DNA from: a virus | IMG/VR virus record: IMGVR_UViG_3300009506_000011 | Coordinates: 20,187 to 84,186 of that record | DNA length: 64,000 bases | Direction: 5' to 3' (one strand) | Shown: one piece after another, positions 2,147-24,597 of the stretch | Position numbering within the stretch: the first letter of the stretch is position 1 | How the letters are laid out: every line of letters starts with the position of its first letter | The notes under the pieces: model-generated | Told to the model about the DNA's origin: nothing | Seen by the model: only the letters and a program-made list of their open reading frames with translations | Databases searched by the model: none | Position numbers and translations under genes: made by a program

Positions 2147-3277
2147 ATGGCAAGCCGCCGTCCCGATGTCATCCGCCTCCAGACGCCTGCCGGCTTCATC
2201 GCTGGCTTCGAGTCCCTCGAGGTGGTGAACGACATCGCTGGCATCTCTGAGGCGATCATCCGCTTCGGCGACGATCGCAGCTGGGGCTACCTCGTGCCGC
2301 TCATTTCTCCAGGGAACGAGATCACCGTTTTTTTGAACCAGCGGCCGCGGCTGAAGGGCCGCGTCGAGATCACGGAGCCGACCGCCGAGGTGGGCAGCGG
2401 CACCGTCTTTCAGCTGAACGTGCGGACCAAGAAGGCGGACGCCCACGTCGCCAGCGCCGAGCCGGTCACCGTACAGGACGTCAGCGTCGCCGACTTCGGG
2501 ATTTCGCTTTACGAGCAGATTGGTCTGACCAGGGCCAACTTTCGTTTCGCCGAGTTCGCCGACCGGGACCTGATGACCGGCAAGGCCGGCGGCGCCGCTC
2601 CGCCGCTCGACTTCGAGACGATCAAGCCCGACCAGGCGAAGGTTCAGCCGCCGGAGACGATCGCCGACTGCTTCGAGCGGCACCTCCGCCGCTTCCGCGC
2701 GACCCACTGGGACGGGCCGACGGGCGAGATCCTGGTCGGCCGTCCGGACGACACGCAGCCGCCGCTCTACCGGCTGCAGTGCAAGCGCGGGCCGACCGCC
2801 AAGGCGAACAACGTGCTCAGCTGCCGCCGGATCATCGACTGGTCCGAGGTCCCCAGCCAGGTCACCGTCTACGGCCAGACGCACGGCAGGGACGTGGCTA
2901 GCTCCCAGTTCAAGGCCGTCGCCGTCAACGACGTCGTGGCGGACGTGGCGGCGCGGACGGGGCACTTCCGGCGCAACGTCATCGTTCAGGACCAGCAGGC
3001 GAAGAGCATCGAGGAAGCGCAGCGGACGGCCACCCGCGAGCTCTCCGCCCGCCGCCGGCGGCAGGACGCCTGGGAGCTGACGGTGGACGGCTGGAGCTAC
3101 TGGAACGGCAACGAGCAGATCAACTGGGCAAACAACACCACCGTCGACATCGACGTCGAGCCGCTCGGCGGTCCCGTCGGCCGCTTCCTGATCGTCCGGG
3201 TACAGCTGCGGCTCACGCTTGACGGCGCTGCCGTGACGGTGATCACGGTGGTGGCGCCGGGGATCTGGGTGCTGTAG
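2147..3277 (+). CDS. Baseplate hub protein (Mu gpP/gp44-like)
   Basis: 376 aa; KVQPPETIADCFERHLRR and NNVLSC..SEVPSQVTVYGQ; sits between the gpN-like and spike genes. Confidence 0.8.
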   Translation: MASRRPDVIRLQTPAGFIAGFESLEVVNDIAGISEAIIRFGDDRSWGYLVPLISPGNEITVFLNQRPRLKGRVEITEPTAEVGSGTVFQLNVRTKKADAHVASAEPVTVQDVSVADFGISLYEQIGLTRANFRFAEFADRDLMTGKAGGAAPPLDFETIKPDQAKVQPPETIADCFERHLRRFRATHWDGPTGEILVGRPDDTQPPLYRLQCKRGPTAKANNVLSCRRIIDWSEVPSQVTVYGQTHGRDVASSQFKAVAVNDVVADVAARTGHFRRNVIVQDQQAKSIEEAQRTATRELSARRRRQDAWELTVDGWSYWNGNEQINWANNTTVDIDVEPLGGPVGRFLIVRVQLRLTLDGAAVTVITVVAPGIWVL

Positions 3278-3363
3278 TCGCAGCCCGCGGAATCGAACCG
3301 CGACACTTCCCCACCTAAGAAGGACAGTGCCAAGCGCCAAATGCAGGCGCCTCCAGGACTGCG
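3278..3363 (-). ncRNA. Non-canonical tRNA-like RNA (UAG at anticodon position)
   Basis: 7-bp acceptor CGCAGTC/GGCTGCG; T arm CGCGG-TTCGATT-CCGCG; 7-bp D-like stem; long anticodon-like arm with loop CT-TAG-GT; no CCA; upstream promoter. Confidence 0.65.
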
Positions 3364-3431
3364 TGTTGCGCGAGATGAAGGCCAGGCCCTGGTGCCGACA
3401 CTACTCGATGCCGTGTCCGTCGCGCAGATGA

Positions 3432-3492
3432 TCCGTAGCAGGACTCGGCCTGCTAGTCAACTAGCGTTGCCCGTGAAACGCTAGCGTGCTAG
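3432..3492 (-). promoter_or_regulatory. Promoter for the tRNA-like RNA plus GCTAGCGTGCTAG box
   Basis: TTGACT(3460-3455)-N17-TACGGA; 13-mer at 3480-3492. Confidence 0.55.
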
Positions 3493-3500
3493 TCAGCCGT

Positions 3501-3950
3501 ATGGCATGCAGATACCCAAACCCCTGCGATTGCTTTATTTGCAGGCCCGACGGCCTACTTGCCGCGGCGCGGCGCCGGCCCACGCCAGGACAAGACCCCG
3601 TGGCGGATATGGCCGAGCCGGTGACGTTCGCCGCGCAACCGCCGGACTGGGCGAGTCAGAGCGACGACCCGCTCGCCGACCTTGCAGCGGCGGAGGGTCG
3701 GCTTGGCCCGGCACCGCGACCGATCATCGTGCCACGCGCCTTCGCCGACGAGCATGGCGCGGCGCTGCAGCGGCTCGGCGCCGAGCTGGTCAGCATCGAC
3801 GGGATGCCCTATCAGCCGCCCGCGAAAAGCGAGGAAGAGATCGCTGAGCAGATCGCTGGCTACGAGCGCGGCGTGCAAGCGACCACAGCGCAGCTGCTTG
3901 ACGTCTTCAGCCAGCTCGTCATCGCGGTCGCGCCAGCGCGGACCAGCTAG
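3501..3950 (+). CDS. Hypothetical protein
   Basis: ORF with typical codon pattern; N-terminal CxCxxC. Confidence 0.5.
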   Translation: MACRYPNPCDCFICRPDGLLAAARRRPTPGQDPVADMAEPVTFAAQPPDWASQSDDPLADLAAAEGRLGPAPRPIIVPRAFADEHGAALQRLGAELVSIDGMPYQPPAKSEEEIAEQIAGYERGVQATTAQLLDVFSQLVIAVAPARTS

Positions 3951-4097
3951 CCTGTACCCGGCCTCGTAGCCTGGTGTGCTCATGCTAGCTGCACACCGGC
4001 CGAGTCGCGCCTCAGCGGACAGGCCGGCAGCGAGGCAGCTCCTAACATAGGTTGCTAGCAGGACGCTCCGCCGCCGTCAACGTGGTAGACTCGGCGC

Positions 4098-4970
4098 ATG
4101 TCAGCAGGCAACCGGATGATCGAGCTGGGCCGCGTGCTCGCGACCAGCGTTACGCCCACGAACCGAGCGATCCTCGGCAACATCGGCTCCCTCGGCGACG
4201 ATAATACCGGCGATCAGGGCGATATTGGCAACGATGAGCGCTTTTTCACCCATCCCGTCTACTGCCGGCCGCTCGGCCACGTGAAGGAGGAGGACGCCAC
4301 GCCGCTCAACCCGGCGGGCGTCTGCGAGTCGGTCATCATCCGATCGGCGGACGAGGTCTATCCCATCGGCTACCGCGACCTGCGCCTCAGCCGGCTGGTG
4401 AACCCGATCGAAGGCGAGGTGGGGATCGTCGGCTACCAGGGCGGTTTCATCAGCCTGCGGCCGAACGCGGACGGCGACGGGACGAACTTCCTGCTCTACG
4501 GCGCCCGACGGGGAACTGACGGCGAGGTGGAGGCGGCCAGCTCGATCGCCATCGACTCGACCAGCTCTCAGAGGCAGATCCTGCTTCAGCACGAGCTCGG
4601 CCAGACGCTCACGCTGAACAAGGACGGGGGCGTCGTCATGGCCAACGCCGCCAACGACGCTTGGCTTGAGGTGAATCCGGACGGGATCTCGCTGAACGGC
4701 AACACCGCGATCACCGGCGCCGTCCGCGAGGTGACGGTGGGCGATCCGCTGTCGGCGCAGAACGTGGCGCTGGCGCCGGACCTGATCACCTTCGTCCAGA
4801 ACGCCGGCCCGACCTTGACGGCTCTCATGACGGCCGTCAACGTGCTGGCGCCGGGGACGTTTACCCCTGCGCAGATCACGGCCATGGCCAACGCCTTCGC
4901 GCCGTACGTGGCCGCGACAACCGTCCAGTCGACGATCCTCAAGGCATCGCCCTTCCTGCCATCGCCGTGA
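4098..4970 (+). CDS. Baseplate spike/assembly protein (gpV / Mu gp45-like)
   Basis: RDLRL..EGEVGI motif, beta-helix-like repeats, position in the tail module. Confidence 0.75.
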   Translation: MSAGNRMIELGRVLATSVTPTNRAILGNIGSLGDDNTGDQGDIGNDERFFTHPVYCRPLGHVKEEDATPLNPAGVCESVIIRSADEVYPIGYRDLRLSRLVNPIEGEVGIVGYQGGFISLRPNADGDGTNFLLYGARRGTDGEVEAASSIAIDSTSSQRQILLQHELGQTLTLNKDGGVVMANAANDAWLEVNPDGISLNGNTAITGAVREVTVGDPLSAQNVALAPDLITFVQNAGPTLTALMTAVNVLAPGTFTPAQITAMANAFAPYVAATTVQSTILKASPFLPSP

Positions 4971-5182
4971 GCAGCTGCGCCTTCCCGCCGATCCAGCCGC
5001 CAGGCTTCGCGCCGCCGGGCTTGCCCGGCGTGCCGGCGCTTCCGCCGACGCCGACGCCGCCTGACTACCCCGGCCTGCCATTCCCACCGATCCAGCCGCC
5101 AGGCTTCGCGCCGCCGGGCTTGCCCGGCGTGCCGGCGCTTCCGCCGCAGCCGACGCTGGACTGTCCGCTTGACGCGCCGTGA
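4967..5182 (+). CDS. Small proline-rich virion-associated protein
   Basis: GTGA-coupled to the spike gene; CAFPP..CPLD with a duplicated 22-aa Pro-rich unit. Confidence 0.55.
   Translation: MSSCAFPPIQPPGFAPPGLPGVPALPPTPTPPDYPGLPFPPIQPPGFAPPGLPGVPALPPQPTLDCPLDAP
4982..5146 (+). repeat. 66-bp direct repeat, 2 copies (4982-5047, 5081-5146)
   Basis: Copies differ by 1 mismatch; in-frame coding duplication. Confidence 0.9.
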
Positions 5183-5203
5183 GAACGGCAGCACCTTCTC
5201 GCC

Positions 5204-5740
5204 ATGCGCAAGCTCGCTCCGTTCCTCCTCCTTGCTCTCCTCCTTCCGCTGATCGCCGCCTGGGACTTCGGCATCGAGCACCGGCACCAGCCGCTGCTGC
5301 TCGGCGACGCTACAGGCTGGGAGCACGACCGCGCTACCCTCGTCCAGACCGGGACGGGGCAGGTATGGCTCGAGCTGCCGCAGCTCTACGACGGCGAGAC
5401 GCTCGGCTACGTCGAGGTACGTTACCAGGGCGGCGCCGGCCACACGAGCAATCCGGTCGGTCTCGGGATCGTGACGCCGCGGCTCGACGTCTACCACGTC
5501 GACCGCGACGGCAAGGAGACGAAGCTCTGCTGGGGGCAGGACGATCCGCATCAGAGCCCGGCCGCCTACGAGCAGCCGCACAGCGTCTACGCCACCGGCT
5601 GCGAGCACGCCGTGGACCCCGCGAGCGGCCGCATCGTGGCGCGGTGGTCAGGCGAGTTTACGGAGGGGTGGTACGACGGTGGACCAGCTGACTTTCACCT
5701 CGGTGCTAAGGTACTGTCGATCACGACCGTGACATACTAG
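5204..5740 (+). CDS. Signal-peptide protein paralogous to the C-terminal domain of tail protein 11334-12056
   Basis: Signal peptide MRKLAPFLLLALLLPLIAA; shared LxDGxxL..GH..P..PRLxVY..DG..Y..H..H..D..GE pattern. Confidence 0.7.
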   Translation: MRKLAPFLLLALLLPLIAAWDFGIEHRHQPLLLGDATGWEHDRATLVQTGTGQVWLELPQLYDGETLGYVEVRYQGGAGHTSNPVGLGIVTPRLDVYHVDRDGKETKLCWGQDDPHQSPAAYEQPHSVYATGCEHAVDPASGRIVARWSGEFTEGWYDGGPADFHLGAKVLSITTVTY

Positions 5741-6151
5741 CTCGAAGCCCATCATGAGGTACTCGACGCCGGGGACCGGGTAGCCACAGCACTGCGGTCG
5801 GTTGACGCCGCCCATCAGCATCCGCGCAGATTGCCGCAGAAGCTGGTCGTAGCTGGGTCCGCCGCCTGGCCGGTTGTCCTCCGCCGCGCGGGGACCTAGG
5901 ACGCGGTCGCACCGGCTGCACCGCCACGCCGGCGCCACCACGGAGGACGTCTCGCCTTCGCCGATTCCCCAGTCAGCGAAGAGCCACCACCGGTAGGGGT
6001 TTCTCAAGTCGGCGGGATAATGCTGCCGGGCCGCGTGTAGCTGCCGTGGCGATGGTCGCTTCGGATGCGTCTGAGCGTAGAGCTTCAGCGAATCCCGAGG
6101 CGATAGCACCGTGTACCGCGTGCCGCTCGGCGTCAGGACCTTGTAGCTCAT
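5648..6151 (-). CDS. Hypothetical protein with CxxC/CC Zn motif
   Basis: MSYKVLTP start, ATGA-coupled to the upstream gene. Confidence 0.5.
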   Translation of the reverse strand: MSYKVLTPSGTRYTVLSPRDSLKLYAQTHPKRPSPRQLHAARQHYPADLRNPYRWWLFADWGIGEGETSSVVAPAWRCSRCDRVLGPRAAEDNRPGGGPSYDQLLRQSARMLMGGVNRPQCCGYPVPGVEYLMMGFELVCHGRDRQYLSTEVKVSWSTVVPPLRKLA

Positions 6152-6597
6152 GGGTTTCGGATCCGGTTGTCGGCGCGGCCTGGCCGACTCGTGCGGAACG
6201 TCAGCTCGACGCACGGCTCCCGCCACTCGTCGCCGTGGCCGTTGTTGCCGAGCTTGACGAAGCGGCCGGTCTTAGGCCGGCGGAAGCCAAAGGCGCAGCT
6301 ATGTCGGGAGTGCCAGGACCAGAACAGCTCTAGGCCGAGCAGCTTGTGCTCGTGCATGTCGAACGCCCAGCGACGAAGCTCCTCGTGCCATACTTGCCAT
6401 GGCCAGCCGTCCCTGGTGGTAATCGCCAGATCCAGGAATGGCTCGCGCAGCAGGTCGCCCCGGTGGCCTAGCCTGACTCGCCGGATGCCGACGGCTCCGC
6501 CGTGGCCGTCATGCCAGAACCAGTACAGCTCATGAGGGCCAAGCTGGTACTCGTGATTGTCCCAGCCCCAACGGCGCAGCCGCTCACGCCAGCTCAT
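6148..6597 (-). CDS. Hypothetical protein
   Basis: Trp/His-rich ORF within a coupled operon. Confidence 0.55.
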   Translation of the reverse strand: MSWRERLRRWGWDNHEYQLGPHELYWFWHDGHGGAVGIRRVRLGHRGDLLREPFLDLAITTRDGWPWQVWHEELRRWAFDMHEHKLLGLELFWSWHSRHSCAFGFRRPKTGRFVKLGNNGHGDEWREPCVELTFRTSRPGRADNRIRNP

Positions 6598-6684
6598 GGC
6601 ACCCGACTCTGTACTTTCGCAGCTCGGCCTTCTCCTCGTCTGTCAGATCCGGCAACTCAAAGCCCCATCGATCAAGCAACCGTT

Positions 6685-7239
6685 TCATGGCCACCTCGTC
6701 AGCTGGACATCGTCCGGCACTCGTGCCTTGCTCCGGGCGAGCGGATGCTTCGGGCTTCCGTCGCTGTTCTTGCCGAGGCACCACAGCTCGCGGCGCTCGT
6801 CTCGGCGCAGCGGCGCGGCTAGCCGCTGGCGGATCGACTCGCCGCGCTCAAGCGTCCACGGCTGCAGCAGTGCGCCCCAGGCTGCCACCACAAGCTCGGC
6901 TGACTGCGCGGCTCGCAGGACGTGGTAGTCATTGTGGACGCCCACAGCGGCCAGCAGACCGCGCTGCTTGATGGTCCGCTCGACCACCGCCGGATCGGTG
7001 GCTCGGAGAGCGAAGAGATTGACGACGATCAGGCTGCCGAATCCCCACCGGCGGCTGAAGCGGATGCAACGGCGGATCGTTGGATCGTCTTGCTCCGCGT
7101 CCGCGGTGGATGGATTGCACATGATCCAGCAGACGACCGGCCCGCCGCCGCCGCACGGTCGCACGAGGGTCCAGCGGTAGCGTCCGCAGCCGCTGATCCC
7201 GGCACCGTAGCCGACGGCGAGCGTGAGCTGCTGTGTCAC
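6685..7239 (-). CDS. DUF1643 family protein
   Basis: CGRYRWTL..WIMCNPSTADAEQDDPTIRRC..NLFALRATDP..AWG..KHPL. Confidence 0.9.
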   Translation of the reverse strand: MTQQLTLAVGYGAGISGCGRYRWTLVRPCGGGGPVVCWIMCNPSTADAEQDDPTIRRCIRFSRRWGFGSLIVVNLFALRATDPAVVERTIKQRGLLAAVGVHNDYHVLRAAQSAELVVAAWGALLQPWTLERGESIRQRLAAPLRRDERRELWCLGKNSDGSPKHPLARSKARVPDDVQLTRWP

Positions 7240-8057
7240 GACCGCCGCCGCTCCCGGAGAGCAAGTTCGATTTTGGCGTGTGCGGCGTCGGCATCATGTC
7301 GGCTTCGGATGCCACCTAGTAGCGTGGCGTAGTCAGCCTCTGCCGGCGCGGCGTGGCCGCTCGCGAGCACGTCCTCTGGCTTCAGCCGCACCAGCAGTTG
7401 GGCGCACAGCTCCGTCGCTCCTTCGCGTCCCAGCTCTGTGATGAGGCGCTGTGCGGTGGTCTCGGGGTCCGTGACGAGGTCCGTGGGCGTCTGGCCTTCG
7501 AGGTGGAGACTCACCTCGAAGGCTGCTAGGTGGCAGTCATCGCATGCATCTGACAAGCGCTCGTGACAGACCAGCTCGGAACGGATCTGCTCTATCCTCT
7601 CTGGCGTGCACTGGGATATGACATCGTTGCACGGTTCAGCGGGGGCCGTCTCTACTGTCAGCCAGGCGATGAGATCTCCCAGGTCAGCGCCGATCCAGTC
7701 GGCCGCCGCCCACATCGGCTCCGGCTCGCCAACTTCGAGTAGGACGGCCGTCGGCTTGTCTGCGCCGATGGCGTAGCCAAGCTCGAGGTGAGCGCTCCGG
7801 CCGCACGGCATGACGAGCACCAGCGCGTCGCAAGATTCGAGCGCCTGCATATCGCAGACGAAGCTCCGCTGGGCGATGGGGTGCTTCAGCGCCTCGACGA
7901 CCTCCTCTGCCGACCAGCTCTCCCAGGCTGGATCAATATCCGACCAGTGGAAGTCAGCGTGGGTGCGGAAGTCGTAGACATCGTTGCCGGCGGCGCGCAG
8001 CGCCTGAACGACGCCGGGCTGTCGCGGATTTCTCCAGCTGCTTGCAACATAGATCAT
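7236..8057 (-). CDS. Nucleoside 2-deoxyribosyltransferase-like protein with C-terminal extension
   Basis: IYVASSWRN..D..AL..CDALVLVMPCGRSAHLELGYAIG. Confidence 0.8.
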   Translation of the reverse strand: MIYVASSWRNPRQPGVVQALRAAGNDVYDFRTHADFHWSDIDPAWESWSAEEVVEALKHPIAQRSFVCDMQALESCDALVLVMPCGRSAHLELGYAIGADKPTAVLLEVGEPEPMWAAADWIGADLGDLIAWLTVETAPAEPCNDVISQCTPERIEQIRSELVCHERLSDACDDCHLAAFEVSLHLEGQTPTDLVTDPETTAQRLITELGREGATELCAQLLVRLKPEDVLASGHAAPAEADYATLLGGIRSRHDADAAHAKIELALRERRRS

Positions 8058-8092
8058 GCCCCGACACTACAGCACCTGCGCCGCCTAGTCAA
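8058..8092 (-). promoter_or_regulatory. Leaderless sigma70-like promoter
   Basis: TTGACT(8092-8087)-N17-TAGTGT, then 6 nt to ATG. Confidence 0.65.
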
Positions 8093-8145
8093 CTAGTAAC
8101 TGCTAGCAGGATAGCCCCGGCGGCGGCCGGCGGTAGAATTGGCTC

Positions 8146-21452: not shown

Positions 21453-22586
21453 CTAGCTGGCGTGCCACAGCAGCCGCGCCTGCGCCACCTCCGCTGGCGG
21501 CACCGGCCCGCCGATGTATCGGAATGACGCGGTCATCTGGGCTAAGCGGGTTTGCGTCGTTTGGTGCCGCCAGTGTATCGCGCGCCGCACCTTGCGCTCG
21601 CGCACCATCTCCCAATTTGGCGAATGCATCCGCGACGCCACCTGCGCCGGATGGGTGGGGGTCGTGCGCAGGCCGAGCCCGTTGGTCGCGGCGATGGCGC
21701 CAATCTTGTCGCTCAGCGCTGTCCCGATGCCGATCCCCTGAAAGTCTGGCAGCACGACCGTCCGGCTCGTGCGCCAGGTGTTTTTGACGTATCGGTGGGG
21801 GAATGGCATCACGCCGCAGAAGGCTGACGGGGCCCCGTCAATGAGCCCCATGAAGCACTTGGCAGACTTGTTCAGCTCGTGCGTCAGGTAGTGATGCGGA
21901 GCGAACCACGGCCAAGCCGCATGCTCGCAGCGGACGATCTCCAGCTCGATCCGGGGCCGGGGTTGAACCGACCTCCACGTCACAAGGCCGACGTGAGGCG
22001 CTGGGCGAGGCTCTAGGATCCAATCGGGCTGCAGCCACTCGACGAGGTCATCGTGGCAGGAGACTGCCACGAATCGCCGGTTTGACCGGCGCACGTGCTT
22101 TGCGACCGCAGCGCTGCCGATCTGGGCCACCTTCCGGTGGACGACGCTGGTGTACTCGTCGATTGCCACAAGCGGCCGCGGGTCGACCAGTGCTCTGGCG
22201 AGGTTGCACCGGAAGCGCTCGCCGTTGGACAGGACCCGGAACGGACGGAGCCACGCCGGCGGCGACGAGAAGCCCACAGACGACAGAGCCCTGATGACGT
22301 TGTCGATGGGCAATGCCTCATCAAACTCAGTGACCACGGCGCCGTCGCCCCAGTCGTAACCCTCGATCAGTGCATCGCCGAAGAGGTGCCGGGCAATGCT
22401 TGTCTTGCCGCAGCCGCTCGGGCCGGTAATGAGCCCGATGCTCCACGGCCTCGCGTCGAGGTCCACGTCAGCGCGAATCTCCACCACGCTTTCAGCGGCA
22501 GACGGGATGTCGTACATTCCCTCCACTTGCTTCACCCGGGCCGTTCGCTCAACGCCCGTCGCAAGCCTCAGATCAACGCGCGGCAT
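21453..22586 (-). CDS. ABC-type ATPase fused to a GNAT acetyltransferase
   Basis: Walker A GPSGCGKT, signature LSNGE, Walker B IDEY; C-terminal RTVVLPDFQGIGIG. Confidence 0.85.
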   Translation of the reverse strand: MPRVDLRLATGVERTARVKQVEGMYDIPSAAESVVEIRADVDLDARPWSIGLITGPSGCGKTSIARHLFGDALIEGYDWGDGAVVTEFDEALPIDNVIRALSSVGFSSPPAWLRPFRVLSNGERFRCNLARALVDPRPLVAIDEYTSVVHRKVAQIGSAAVAKHVRRSNRRFVAVSCHDDLVEWLQPDWILEPRPAPHVGLVTWRSVQPRPRIELEIVRCEHAAWPWFAPHHYLTHELNKSAKCFMGLIDGAPSAFCGVMPFPHRYVKNTWRTSRTVVLPDFQGIGIGTALSDKIGAIAATNGLGLRTTPTHPAQVASRMHSPNWEMVRERKVRRAIHWRHQTTQTRLAQMTASFRYIGGPVPPAEVAQARLLWHAS

Positions 22587-23191
22587 GGCCAGCCCAGCTC
22601 CTCCAGCTCGCGCAGCTTTTCGAGCTGGTCCTCTTCGCCCTCGCACTCGACGACGATCGCGAACTGCTTCTGAGCGTCGCCCTGCCTGCGTCGCTGCTTG
22701 TTTCGCTCCTGGCTCTTGTCTGGCTCAGGCTCGATCTCAAGGCTCAGCAGCTGAGCGAACTGCTCCTCCGCGAACCCCAGGTCGAGCGCGTCGCTGACGT
22801 CCAGCTCGATGGGGCGAAGCGCCTCTGCCAGCGCCTCGTCCGTCCAGCTGCCCCGGCGCGTGTAGAGCTGCACCGTCAGCCGGCGCGCCTCGGCCTCGGT
22901 GATCCCGTCGAGGTAGACCGCCGGGCCTTCGAGCAGTCCGACGTCCAGAGCGCAGGTCCAGCGCTGCTCGCCGTCGATGATGACGTTGCGCTCCTCACCC
23001 TTTTCGTCCGTGCGCCAGACGAGCAGCGCCTGCGAGCTGAGCCAGCCCTCCTTCATGAAGCCAGCCTTCATGCTCTCGCGCTCCAGCTCGGTCATGGTGT
23101 TGCCATTCCAGCCGTTGGGCCGGAGCTTCGTCAAATCAACGATCTCAGTCTTGCCGCGGACGTGCGGCTGTCGCTTGCGCTTCTTCGCCAT
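22568..23191 (-). CDS. ParB/Srx-like protein
   Basis: LRPNGWNGNTM..IIDGEQRW. Confidence 0.8.
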   Translation of the reverse strand: MAKKRKRQPHVRGKTEIVDLTKLRPNGWNGNTMTELERESMKAGFMKEGWLSSQALLVWRTDEKGEERNVIIDGEQRWTCALDVGLLEGPAVYLDGITEAEARRLTVQLYTRRGSWTDEALAEALRPIELDVSDALDLGFAEEQFAQLLSLEIEPEPDKSQERNKQRRRQGDAQKQFAIVVECEGEEDQLEKLRELEELGWPCRALI

Positions 23192-23441
23192 CTCTCCTCC
23201 GTCGAGCCATTGCTCGTACCGCCGCCAGCCGACGCTCGCGGTCGAGCTGCCAGCGGATCGGCGGATACAGCCTCGCCCATCGCTGTACCGTGCTAGCTGG
23301 CCAAGCTAGCTTTGCCATGTCGCCCCCGGCGCGGCGGATGGCGGCCATGACGAGGCGCCTCGCCGCCGCCTCCCCACGCCTCAGCCGCGCGCCGAGGGAC
23401 CGGCCGCTGTCAGCCACTGGAGCTGGCCAGGACGGCATCAT
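23145..23441 (-). CDS. Small HTH-like protein
   Basis: AIRRAGGDMAKL..STVQRW; coupled to neighbouring genes. Confidence 0.45.
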   Translation of the reverse strand: MMPSWPAPVADSGRSLGARLRRGEAAARRLVMAAIRRAGGDMAKLAWPASTVQRWARLYPPIRWQLDRERRLAAVRAMARRRRDGEEAQATAARPRQD

Positions 23442-24313
23442 GCCGCGCAGAGCCCCCACGCGACGCAGCTCGGCGTCCCCTCAAAAAACCAGTCGTGCTG
23501 CCGGCCGCCGCGGCTCGTCCGCGCCCAGCTCACCGCCTCGTCGATCGGCCGGTTGGTGCTCTTGATGTCGTCGTCGCGCCGGGCAAGCTCGGCCTTGGTC
23601 AGCTGCCGGGAGAACATCGTCGGCGGCGTCAACCCGAGGCTGTCGAAGGTCTCTCCCCGCGCCTCATAGCGAAGGCGCGCCGCCTCTTGGACGTCGGCCT
23701 CGAGCTGCCGGATCTCGTCGATGCGCGCGGGATCCAGGTCCGCTACCAGCCGGATCGCCGCCTTGCCAGAGCAGACACAGGGCCAGCAGCCGACACGCTC
23801 GGCGCCTTGCAGGTAGAGAGGGTTGGGCGCCAAACCGTGCCGGCGGTGGATCGCGATGACCTCGTCCTTCGTCCAGTCGATGATCGGCCGCCATACCTCG
23901 ACATCTCCCCACGCCAAACGACCGCGTGGCACGTCACGCTCCGGCAGCTTCGCGCGGCGGCGGGACTCCTCGCGACGCACGCCTACCGCGTTGACGACGT
24001 GATCATCAAACCGTGCCATCCAGGCCGCCATCGGCTCAAGCTTGAGTGTGCGCGTACACCATCTCATGCGGGGCGTACGGCTGGGAAACATGCCTTTCTT
24101 GCGGCACCAGTCGGCAAAGCCGCCGCCGGGCGAGCGCACCACGTCGATCTGGCCGAGCTTGTCCTGCAGCGGTCCCAGCACGTACTCGACGGTGGACGGG
24201 TGCTCCCATCCCGTGTCGGCGAAAACCCGCAGGTGCTCGATGCCTTGCTCCAGCAGGTAGAGGCACGCAGCGGCGCTGTCCTTGCCGCCGCTCACGCTCA
24301 CAATCGTGGTCAC
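23438..24313 (-). CDS. PAPS-reductase-family (CysH/DndC-like) protein
   Basis: SVSGGKDS PP-loop, FADTGWE, RWCT..LK, GVRREESRRR, NPLY..RVGCWPC. Confidence 0.9.
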   Translation of the reverse strand: MTTIVSVSGGKDSAAACLYLLEQGIEHLRVFADTGWEHPSTVEYVLGPLQDKLGQIDVVRSPGGGFADWCRKKGMFPSRTPRMRWCTRTLKLEPMAAWMARFDDHVVNAVGVRREESRRRAKLPERDVPRGRLAWGDVEVWRPIIDWTKDEVIAIHRRHGLAPNPLYLQGAERVGCWPCVCSGKAAIRLVADLDPARIDEIRQLEADVQEAARLRYEARGETFDSLGLTPPTMFSRQLTKAELARRDDDIKSTNRPIDEAVSWARTSRGGRQHDWFFEGTPSCVAWGLCAA

Positions 24314-24597
24314 TGCACCCCCGGCAGATGAAGCAGCAGCCGCAGCCAGGCCGGGGTTCGGCGCGCTTCCCGCGCCATCCGCGCTCGTCTGGCTGGACTG
24401 CTGTCCGTCAACGCCTCATGCCAGCACTGTCGCCGCCGTTGCAGCTCCTGGCGGACCTTGAAGGTAAGCCACGCTTCTAGCCACTTGAGCAGCGCGCCAG
24501 CACGCGGTCCGCGGTTTTCTAGACGCGGGCGGGAATCGAACCCGCCCCCGGGACTGGAACCCGGGGCCCGCCATCGGGCCGCGTGCTGGCGCTTCAT
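24310..24597 (-). CDS. Possible leader ORF containing the tRNA-like structure
   Basis: Leaderless ATG after the promoter; GTGA-coupled to the PAPS reductase gene. Confidence 0.35.
   Translation of the reverse strand: MKRQHAARWRAPGSSPGGGFDSRPRLENRGPRAGALLKWLEAWLTFKVRQELQRRRQCWHEALTDSSPARRARMAREARRTPAWLRLLLHLPGVQ
24523..24584 (-). ncRNA. Minimal tRNA-like four-way junction (CCA at anticodon position)
   Basis: ACGCG|GCCCG-ATGG-CGGGC|CCCGGG-TTCCAGT-CCCGGG|GGCGGG-TTCGATT-CCCGCC|CGCGT; all stems perfectly paired. Confidence 0.75.

Follow-up and report, generated by a model that had tools for sequence, protein, structure and literature searches.

The el1 locus and its cloverleaf

The window analyzed here is a stretch of 64,000 nucleotides. 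It corresponds to bases 20187-84186 of an IMG/VR record, a complete tailed-phage genome of 84,186 bp with direct terminal repeats. The phage genome has a GC content of 67%, and its DNA was found in marine-sediment and other sediment metagenome runs. Pfam searches of about 50 window proteins identified a LexA-like DNA-binding protein, RecT/YqaJ, DnaB, a DNA methylase, a terminase, and a Mu-type portal, and no tRNA-processing, tRNA-modifying, or tRNA-charging enzyme was found among them. Scanning the whole window (1-64000) against Rfam at gathering thresholds returned no family at all. The subject of this study is a tRNA-like element on the minus strand, referred to as el1 (Table 1). The initial annotation placed el1 between baseplate genes; its neighbors are instead one gpP-like baseplate gene (2147-3277) and one small accessory open reading frame (ORF; 3609-3950). 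The stop codon of the gpP-like gene adjoins discriminator A3278, two nucleotides beyond the 3' end of the cloverleaf, and the accessory ORF is transcribed divergently from a control region that it shares with el1.

Table 1. Features of the el1 locus and related elements (window coordinates unless stated otherwise)
Feature	Position	Strand	Basis or remark
gpP-like baseplate hub gene	2147..3277	+	PHROG 177, E 3e-27; 53 homologues
Discriminator-position A, then CUA; CCA not encoded	3278	-	Minus-strand reading
el1, 85-nt tRNA-like four-arm cloverleaf	3279..3363	-	Minus-strand reading and MFE fold
Acceptor stem, 7 bp, CGCAGUC/GGCUGCG	3363-3357 / 3285-3279	-	Minus-strand reading and MFE fold
T arm, CGCGG-UUCGAUU-CCGCG, 5 bp, canonical T-loop	3286..3302	-	Minus-strand reading, 11-mer, descriptor
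Long anticodon-like arm, CACU(G)UCCUU-CUUAGGU-GGGGAAGUG, 9 bp and one bulge	3329-3304	-	Minus-strand reading and MFE fold
Anticodon-like loop, 7 nt, CUUAGGU; U33-like U, UAG at 3317-3315, G at position 37	3313..3319	-	
D-position hairpin, AGGCGCC-UGCAUUU-GGCGCUU, 7 bp, 7-nt loop without GG	3332..3352	-	Minus-strand reading and MFE fold
Predicted 62-nt 5' leader, closed by GCGCGA/UCGCGC (3425-3420 / 3373-3368)	3364..3425	-	Fold
Putative leftward promoter: -35 TTGACT (3460-3455), 17-nt spacer, -10 TACGGA (3437-3432)	3432..3460	-	Family of 7
Palindromic CTAG box, GCTAG-TTGA-CTAGC, overlapping the -35	3452..3465		
Control core, 27 bp, with near-palindrome CTAGCACGCTAG(C)	3466..3492		96% identical in L039 697-723
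Small acidic accessory ORF, 113 aa, maybe starting at ATG 3501	3609..3950	+	Source annotation; two homologues
Next conserved tail-module gene	4098..4970	+	Directly follows gpP in many relatives
Second tRNA-like element, 62 nt, 6+5-bp top half	24523-24584	-	
TTGACTAGC sites (genome coordinates, G000)	2757, 4508, 22282, 23638, 46403, 52513	-	
TTGACTAGC site (genome coordinates, G000)	60801	+	

Whether folded alone, with its flanks, or as the predicted primary transcript, the el1 cloverleaf is both the minimum free energy (MFE) structure and the centroid in ViennaRNA, with a total of 28 bp over four arms and a single bulge. The acceptor strands are 54 nt apart. CUGG links the acceptor to the hairpin at the D position, GG links that hairpin to the long arm, and the variable loop is reduced to one unpaired U. 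Much of this architecture had been recognized in the initial annotation, and the minus-strand reading together with the MFE fold confirmed a 7+5-bp acceptor/T helix with a UUCGAUU loop (3279-3363), a 7-bp D-like stem (AGGCGCC/GGCGCUU, 3352-3332), and the lack of a variable loop, beyond the one U, and of an encoded CCA. An anticodon-like arm of about 10 bp with a CU-UAG-GU loop had also been described; the loop was recovered as such, and the stem is 9 bp long plus one bulge. The minus strand folds at -43.9 kcal/mol compared to -30.0 kcal/mol for the plus strand, and this gap of 14 kcal/mol arises because four G-U pairs form on the minus strand only. Three features of a decoding tRNA are missing from the sequence: the D-loop GG (G18G19), the variable region, and the tertiary core.

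At 67% GC, stems are cheap to form, and folding of the whole region yields modest z-scores (-2.2 over 97 nt, -1.2 over 201 nt). Both observations fit an explanation of el1 as chance hairpins in GC-rich spacer DNA or as an attP-type fragment from the 3' end of a host tRNA gene, which we nevertheless regard as very improbable. A strict descriptor (7-bp acceptor and 5-bp T stem, stacked, with a TTCRANN loop) matches el1 and nothing else in the 84,186-bp genome, whereas dinucleotide-shuffled genomes contain a mean of 0.05 matches, with 2 of 40 shuffles having one. The 54-nt interior of el1 also folds better than 98.6% of shuffled sequences (p ~0.014). Against the att origin, el1 has both acceptor strands and no neighboring integrase gene, and the 22-mer comprising the T arm and acceptor is absent from 185,579 species genomes; on the last two grounds, an identity as attP or as a tRNA 3' fragment was rejected. 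Together, the fold and descriptor tests support the earlier proposal of a discrete, noncanonical tRNA-like element on the minus strand. The T-loop 11-mer GGTTCGATTCC has exactly two copies in the window, one in el1 and one in a second tRNA-like element (24523-24584), and a relaxed scan did not find a third canonical tRNA top half. A 28-codon frame running from a GTG at ~3403 to the TAG of the loop is the sole frame across el1 and was rejected as coding, with a GC3 of 48% compared to 80-90% in genes.

Strain variants provided a further view of the element. We compared contigs from four DNA runs of other studies with window positions 2400-4600. Several X4 contigs and one X5 contig span gpP and the cloverleaf (3214-3361) and not the leader; overall, the variants retain positions 3275-3358, while the leader and promoter are replaceable. 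Homology breaks at 3358/3359, inside the 5' strand of the acceptor and next to the 5' edge of the cloverleaf. One X4 contig is fully divergent upstream of the acceptor, and there CGCAG is still read and, with one inserted C, seven pairs are again formed. On the other side, one X5 contig carries a 63-nt insertion between the gpP stop codon and el1, located 3 nt past the 3' end of el1, and this contig matches the reference again from 3465, where the control core has its edge. These contigs show that the cloverleaf behaves as a unit: its boundaries lie no more than a few nucleotides from the acceptor stem, and both flanks change. Within the cloverleaf, a 3307 T>C variant (A57>G) becomes a G-U with U38 so that the pair is kept, a 3314 C>T variant (G37>A) in the loop keeps a purine, and one variant contig has an inserted base next to the long-arm bulge. 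Because these events are few and the strains are only a few per cent diverged, the structure-compatible changes carry no statistical weight for covariation. We judge with moderate confidence that a real gene is present at el1.

Control region and cargo slot

Based on its upstream sequence, a dedicated promoter for el1 is plausible. The initial annotation assigned el1 its own TTGACT promoter, and the evidence on this point is divided: a generic sigma-70 scan called no promoter between 2900 and 4300 and the -10 hexamer (TACGGA) is a poor one, but the site belongs to a seven-copy phage promoter family. This family has the form TTGACTAGC-N14-TA(G/C)GNN, with seven copies of TTGACTAGC per genome, six of them on the minus strand, and most copies are followed by a TA(G/C)GNN-like hexamer 17 nt after the TTGACT. 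The related sequence count for TGACTAGC is eight copies in the genome. Family -35 boxes (TTGACT) are embedded in a CTAG palindrome, and the promoters usually lie within 25 nt of an ATG, a near-leaderless arrangement. Six of the seven copies are found within ~25 nt of an ORF start, including the starts of the gene at 1709-2104 and of the gene that opens the type IV-B cas operon; the el1 copy (3460-3432) is the only family member without an ORF start just downstream. CTAG itself is rarer in the genome than expected by a factor of ~2.7 (96 occurrences observed), with its copies concentrated in these promoter boxes.

The CTAG boxes would serve leftward as well as rightward promoters, and the 330-bp gap can therefore be described as a bidirectional, operator-rich control region. 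The 13-mer CTAGCACGCTAGC (3492-3480), a near-palindrome of the form CTAGC-AC-GCTAG, occurs in four copies in the window. On the plus strand, the control core reads TTGCCC-N17-TAGTCA, with CTAGCACGCTAGC forming the spacer and -10. Since this putative promoter ends 5 nt before an in-frame ATG at 3501, the product of ORF 3609-3950 may be a protein of 149 aa translated from a leaderless transcript, and its homologues P0057 and P0058 also have N-terminal extensions. We found no relatives of this ORF, or of the minus-strand ORF at 3555-3983, in IMG/VR; the latter was rejected as a gene, being an arginine-rich shadow of the plus-strand ORF. A leader able to fold through GCGCGA/TCGCGC had also been proposed for el1. 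This helix exists, but the leader fold is not better than that of shuffled sequences (z -1.0), and the helix is not kept in related strains.

The region from 3278 to 4097 is an accessory insertion in the tail module, because the homologue of the 4098-4970 gene (w4098) directly follows gpP in many relatives. Across 30 related contigs from IMG/VR, the genes are arranged as hub fragment, gpP, w4098 homologue, w8146, and w8571, and in at least 9 of the 30 the w4098 homologue lies 3-50 nt after gpP. The tail/baseplate module of this phage contains three such insertions (~750-2146, 3278-4097, and 4971-8145) where the order is contiguous in many relatives. These insertions carry mostly minus-strand small genes behind CTAG-box promoters, and a nucleoside deoxyribosyltransferase-like gene (7236-8057) is located within them.

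Cargo recurs in the slot after gpP, which measures 685 nt in L005 and ~2 kb in L022, L026, and L030. Two of these distant relatives, L022 and L026, hold genuine tRNA-Met genes on the gpP strand, as called by ARAGORN under default settings (L022:6064-6138 [+] and L026:6271-6345 [+], 10 nt and 127 nt after the gpP-like gene, respectively). Scanning the 30 related loci for top halves under relaxed criteria returned these two true tRNA-Met genes and noise only. One strong T-arm-like match with a partial acceptor, GGCGG-TTCGACT-CCGCC at L024:9777-9849 (-), lies antisense inside the coding region of a w8571 homologue and is probably due to chance. The closest assembled relative that we found, the JGI contig L039, is 86% identical in the gpP C terminus and 84% identical in w8571, and it shares with the el1 phage the 27-bp control core and the rightward ORF family. 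Its leftward cargo is not an RNA and instead consists of a small minus-strand protein gene (316-696) with a sigma-70 region-4-like helix-turn-helix (...IGEELGICGERVRQIERQALAKLRKRC...), the product of which may be a transcription regulator or sigma mimic. As the same core is paired with a protein gene in L039, el1 is an exchangeable leftward cargo of a conserved control region.

el1 is antisense to the plus-strand late genes and ends beside the gpP stop codon, and it is followed by no strong terminator, only by a weak hairpin-T site at 3155-3139. It could be a cis-acting or antisense device that controls or processes late tail mRNA, acting either by leftward read-through into the 3' end of gpP or by pairing of el1 RNA with a late tail transcript that crosses the insertion, with the tRNA shape providing an RNase P site or a stabilizer. 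A precedent is found in plant mitochondria, where tRNA-like t-elements set mRNA ends (PMC1920247). We consider such a device improbable, as there is no minus-strand ORF downstream to process, relatives work without such an element, and the block conserved among strain variants is the cloverleaf rather than the region overlapping gpP.

Relationship of el1 to tRNA

el1 combines canonical and noncanonical tRNA features. As in a canonical tRNA, the 7-bp acceptor of el1 stacks on the 5-bp T stem, and the T-loop fits UUCRANY. At the D position, a canonical tRNA would have a 3- to 4-bp arm with a G18G19 loop, whereas el1 has 7 bp and a UGCAUUU loop. The anticodon-like loop likewise fits, whereas the expected 5-bp stem and variable region are replaced by 9 bp with a bulge; the stem is extended to this length because the would-be variable loop pairs, leaving one U. 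el1 falls below the threshold of the canonical-tRNA detectors. ARAGORN under default settings reported 0 tRNA or tmRNA genes in the window or in the whole genome (the -m option also gave no tmRNA), and RF00005 did not match el1 even at E<=10 in a 191-nt search, upholding the earlier statement that el1 is not an ordinary tRNA-Leu. When the ARAGORN threshold was lowered to 90% (-ps90), a poor 69-nt "tRNA-Leu(tag)" using the same anticodon arm and T arm was called at el1, among 15 mostly spurious calls. The 54-nt distance between the acceptor strands also does not fit a tmRNA, which has a tag reading frame and pseudoknots in addition to its tRNA-like domain, and Rfam gave no tmRNA or Y-RNA match. 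With the mascRNA model (RF01684), the sole match was off-register, on the plus strand, at 12.6 bits, and the el1 strand gave none.

Other evidence connects el1 to genuine tRNAs. A covariance model built from el1, referred to as R1, scores 29-34 bits against genuine genes for tRNA-Val and tRNA-Pro in Planctomycetota genomes. In these alignments, the acceptor, T arm, and A73 are in register, as are the loop and the five distal pairs of the long arm and the GUGU at the variable-loop position. Because R1 aligns collinearly with class I tRNAs, el1 is probably a tRNA-derived, remodeled sequence. The simplest reading is a class I-type tRNA body in which the D region became a 7-bp hairpin without G18G19, while the former variable loop (AGUG) would pair with the 3' strand of the former D stem (CACU) and thereby lengthen the anticodon stem. 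The initial annotation set el1 apart from an ordinary or decayed tRNA-Leu, and this separation holds only in part: el1 does not score as a tRNA, yet it is collinear with class I tRNAs. Among the Planctomycetota sequences, one contig (L045, G167:C25:15654-18726) has 15 tRNA genes in ~1.7 kb, a dense array that is possibly located on a mobile element or phage.

The same collinearity, in an element that escapes both ARAGORN and Rfam, is what would be expected of a functionless relic, namely a phage tRNA gene that was rearranged or is decaying in a hot spot for cargo. The genuine tRNA-Met genes in this slot in L022 and L026 point in the same direction, as does the absence of el1 from L039 and its confinement to one lineage. 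We still find a relic unlikely. All four arms are perfectly paired apart from the one bulge, and the new helices (the 7 bp at the D position and CACU/AGUG) are not expected from decay. Furthermore, a family-type promoter has been kept, and strain variants retain the module, which has sharp boundaries in them.

A working, decoding tRNA-Leu(UAG) of unusual build is another potential identity. The loop C32-U33-UAG-G37-U38 and discriminator A73 are features expected of tRNA-Leu(UAG), and the strain variant in the loop retains a purine at position 37. In such a tRNA, the 9-bp arm would stand in for stacked D and anticodon stems, as it may contain about as many layers as the two together, and the hairpin would protrude at the corner like a class II arm. 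Leucine codons that it might serve are in use, with CUA at 3.6 and CUG at 36.5 per 1000 codons; CUG is common, and CUA is so rare that the benefit would be small. Without G18G19, a variable region, or a tertiary core, and with covariance models rejecting el1, this identity is quite improbable. We also know of no bacterial tRNA with such a rewired core, which further counts against it.

Possible roles of el1 and the second element

The reading that we favor, while giving it slightly less than even chances, is that el1 is a genuine and discrete RNA gene of tRNA origin, that the tail module carries it as accessory cargo, and that it is expressed from its own promoter as a non-decoding mimic, possibly acting as a decoy. 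Membership in the promoter family suggests that el1 would be transcribed leftward, antisense to the late tail genes, from the CTAG-box promoter at 3460-3432. A 12-bp coaxial acceptor/T helix with a canonical T-loop is what tRNA end-processing enzymes recognize. The perfect 12-bp minihelix and canonical T-loop of el1 suggest that host RNase P would remove the ~62-nt leader at C3363, and the 3' trailer might then be trimmed after A3278 and CCA added. The product would be a four-way-junction RNA of ~85 nt that presents the top half of a tRNA together with a tRNA-Leu(UAG)-type loop on a long, rigid stem. Because the D-loop GG and the variable region are missing and the anticodon-like stem has 9 bp, decoding by this RNA is unlikely.

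As a non-decoding mimic, el1 could serve as bait or sponge for a host factor directed at tRNA. Candidate targets include tRNA-binding enzymes and those nucleases of anti-phage systems that act on the anticodon loop or the acceptor end. Confidence in any particular role is low, and our preference for bait or sponge is speculative, drawing on the frequency with which tRNAs are targeted by anti-phage systems and on the use by phages of their own tRNAs in response. Phage tRNAs have been documented as a counter-defense against tRNA-targeting immunity (PMC10264068, PMC11555353, PMC12409363, PMC12851939). Several observations speak against the mimic: the -10 is weak and the generic promoter scan was negative, no homologue was found outside the phage lineage, the L039 slot holds a protein gene, and no tRNA-processing or tRNA-modifying gene was found among the ~50 window proteins scanned with Pfam.

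Like el1, which is predicted to have its own promoter, phage tRNAs that replace or outlast nuclease-attacked host tRNAs (PMC10264068, PMC11555353, PMC12409363) are phage-borne and promoter-driven, with an acceptor/T domain and an anticodon loop containing U33 and a purine at 37, and el1 occupies an accessory slot in which two relatives hold a real tRNA-Met. However, those tRNAs are canonical, decode, and are found by standard tools, in contrast to the ARAGORN- and Rfam-negative el1 with its 9-bp anticodon-like arm. mascRNA/MALAT1-type RNAs (RF01684) and plant mitochondrial t-elements (PMC1920247) are, like el1 in our reading, non-decoding cloverleaf mimics, and they are recognized by tRNA end-processing enzymes, as is predicted for el1. 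These RNAs are eukaryotic or organellar and are cut from long transcripts, whereas el1 appears to have its own promoter. The tRNA-like structures at the 3' ends of plant RNA viruses (PMC5723415, PMC4810235), tmRNA, and YrlA share with el1 the mimicry of a tRNA top half, by which they engage tRNA enzymes of the host, but their domains are parts of larger RNAs with other topologies, such as a pseudoknotted acceptor or an end in another helix. No counterpart of el1 was found in the searches of IMG/VR, JGI metagenome, GTDB genome, and GenBank phage sequences.

tRNAs are now seen as a major target of bacterial anti-phage immunity, to which phages reply with tRNAs of their own. If our reading is true, el1 has kept the parts of a tRNA that enzymes grip, namely the acceptor/T minihelix and a single anticodon loop, and swapped the decoding core for plain helices, which would be mimicry rather than replacement, and it would illustrate how a tRNA gene can be remodeled into a new small RNA. 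The cargo slot belongs to a widespread gpP-type tail module and is alternately empty or occupied by true tRNAs, small regulators, or el1. Knowledge of this slot is useful for annotating uncultured phages with tRNA-like genes that escape standard detectors.

The second tRNA-like element of this phage resembles el1 in several respects. Both are encoded on the minus strand, contain the GGTTCGATTCC T-loop core in a stacked top half, and have a CTAG-box promoter upstream. The YU-NNN-GU loops and almost linker-free four-way junctions that the initial annotation ascribed to both were borne out. In contrast to el1, the second element is only 62 nt long with a 6+5-bp top half, has a 4-bp D-like arm with a 4-nt loop bearing GG, carries CCA at the center of its anticodon-like loop, and heads an operon. 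It scores 16.7 bits on RF00005, for which the cutoff is 29 bits. The two elements could not be aligned in register with MAFFT, and a search with R1 did not detect the second element.

The two had been interpreted as members of a family of phage tRNA mimics, an interpretation that is not supported, since they share only generic tRNA top-half features and R1 finds neither the second element nor others. R1 had no match in the 30 related viral records or L039, exact scans for the T arm and acceptor of el1 had none in IMG/VR, JGI metagenomes, or GTDB genomes, and blastn of el1 and its region had none among 50,697 phage records. Matches to a degenerate anticodon-arm pattern in the AT-rich L037 and L038 were dismissed as chance hits in unrelated sequence. 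The proposed family rests on two elements in one phage lineage, which does not establish their common descent.

Leu and Trp tRNAs are frequent targets of PIN-domain VapC toxins, and the loops of el1 (Leu-UAG type) and of the second element (Trp-CCA type) would be in keeping with this. The two elements could represent a new class of early-expressed, non-decoding decoys, each presenting an anticodon-arm bait on a rigid stem below a tRNA top half, that soak up tRNA-targeting immunity nucleases or, more remotely, RNA ligands of the array-less type IV-B Csf/SPOUT/CysH-like machinery of this phage; we consider this rather unlikely. The machinery shares an operator class with both elements, and the type IV-B Csf complex is able to assemble on heterogeneous non-CRISPR RNA (PMC7937560). 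A specific link between el1 and type IV-B is remote because the shared operator is also found at unrelated operons. No IMG/VR relatives of the SPOUT fusion protein of this phage were found. The first gene of the operon headed by the second element encodes a PAPS-reductase-domain protein (23438-24415 [-], E 1e-23), and the PAPS-reductase fold is akin to that of CysH-like accessory genes of type IV-B systems. A fusion of an ABC-type ATPase and a GNAT acetyltransferase (21453-22724 [-]) is also encoded downstream of the second element.
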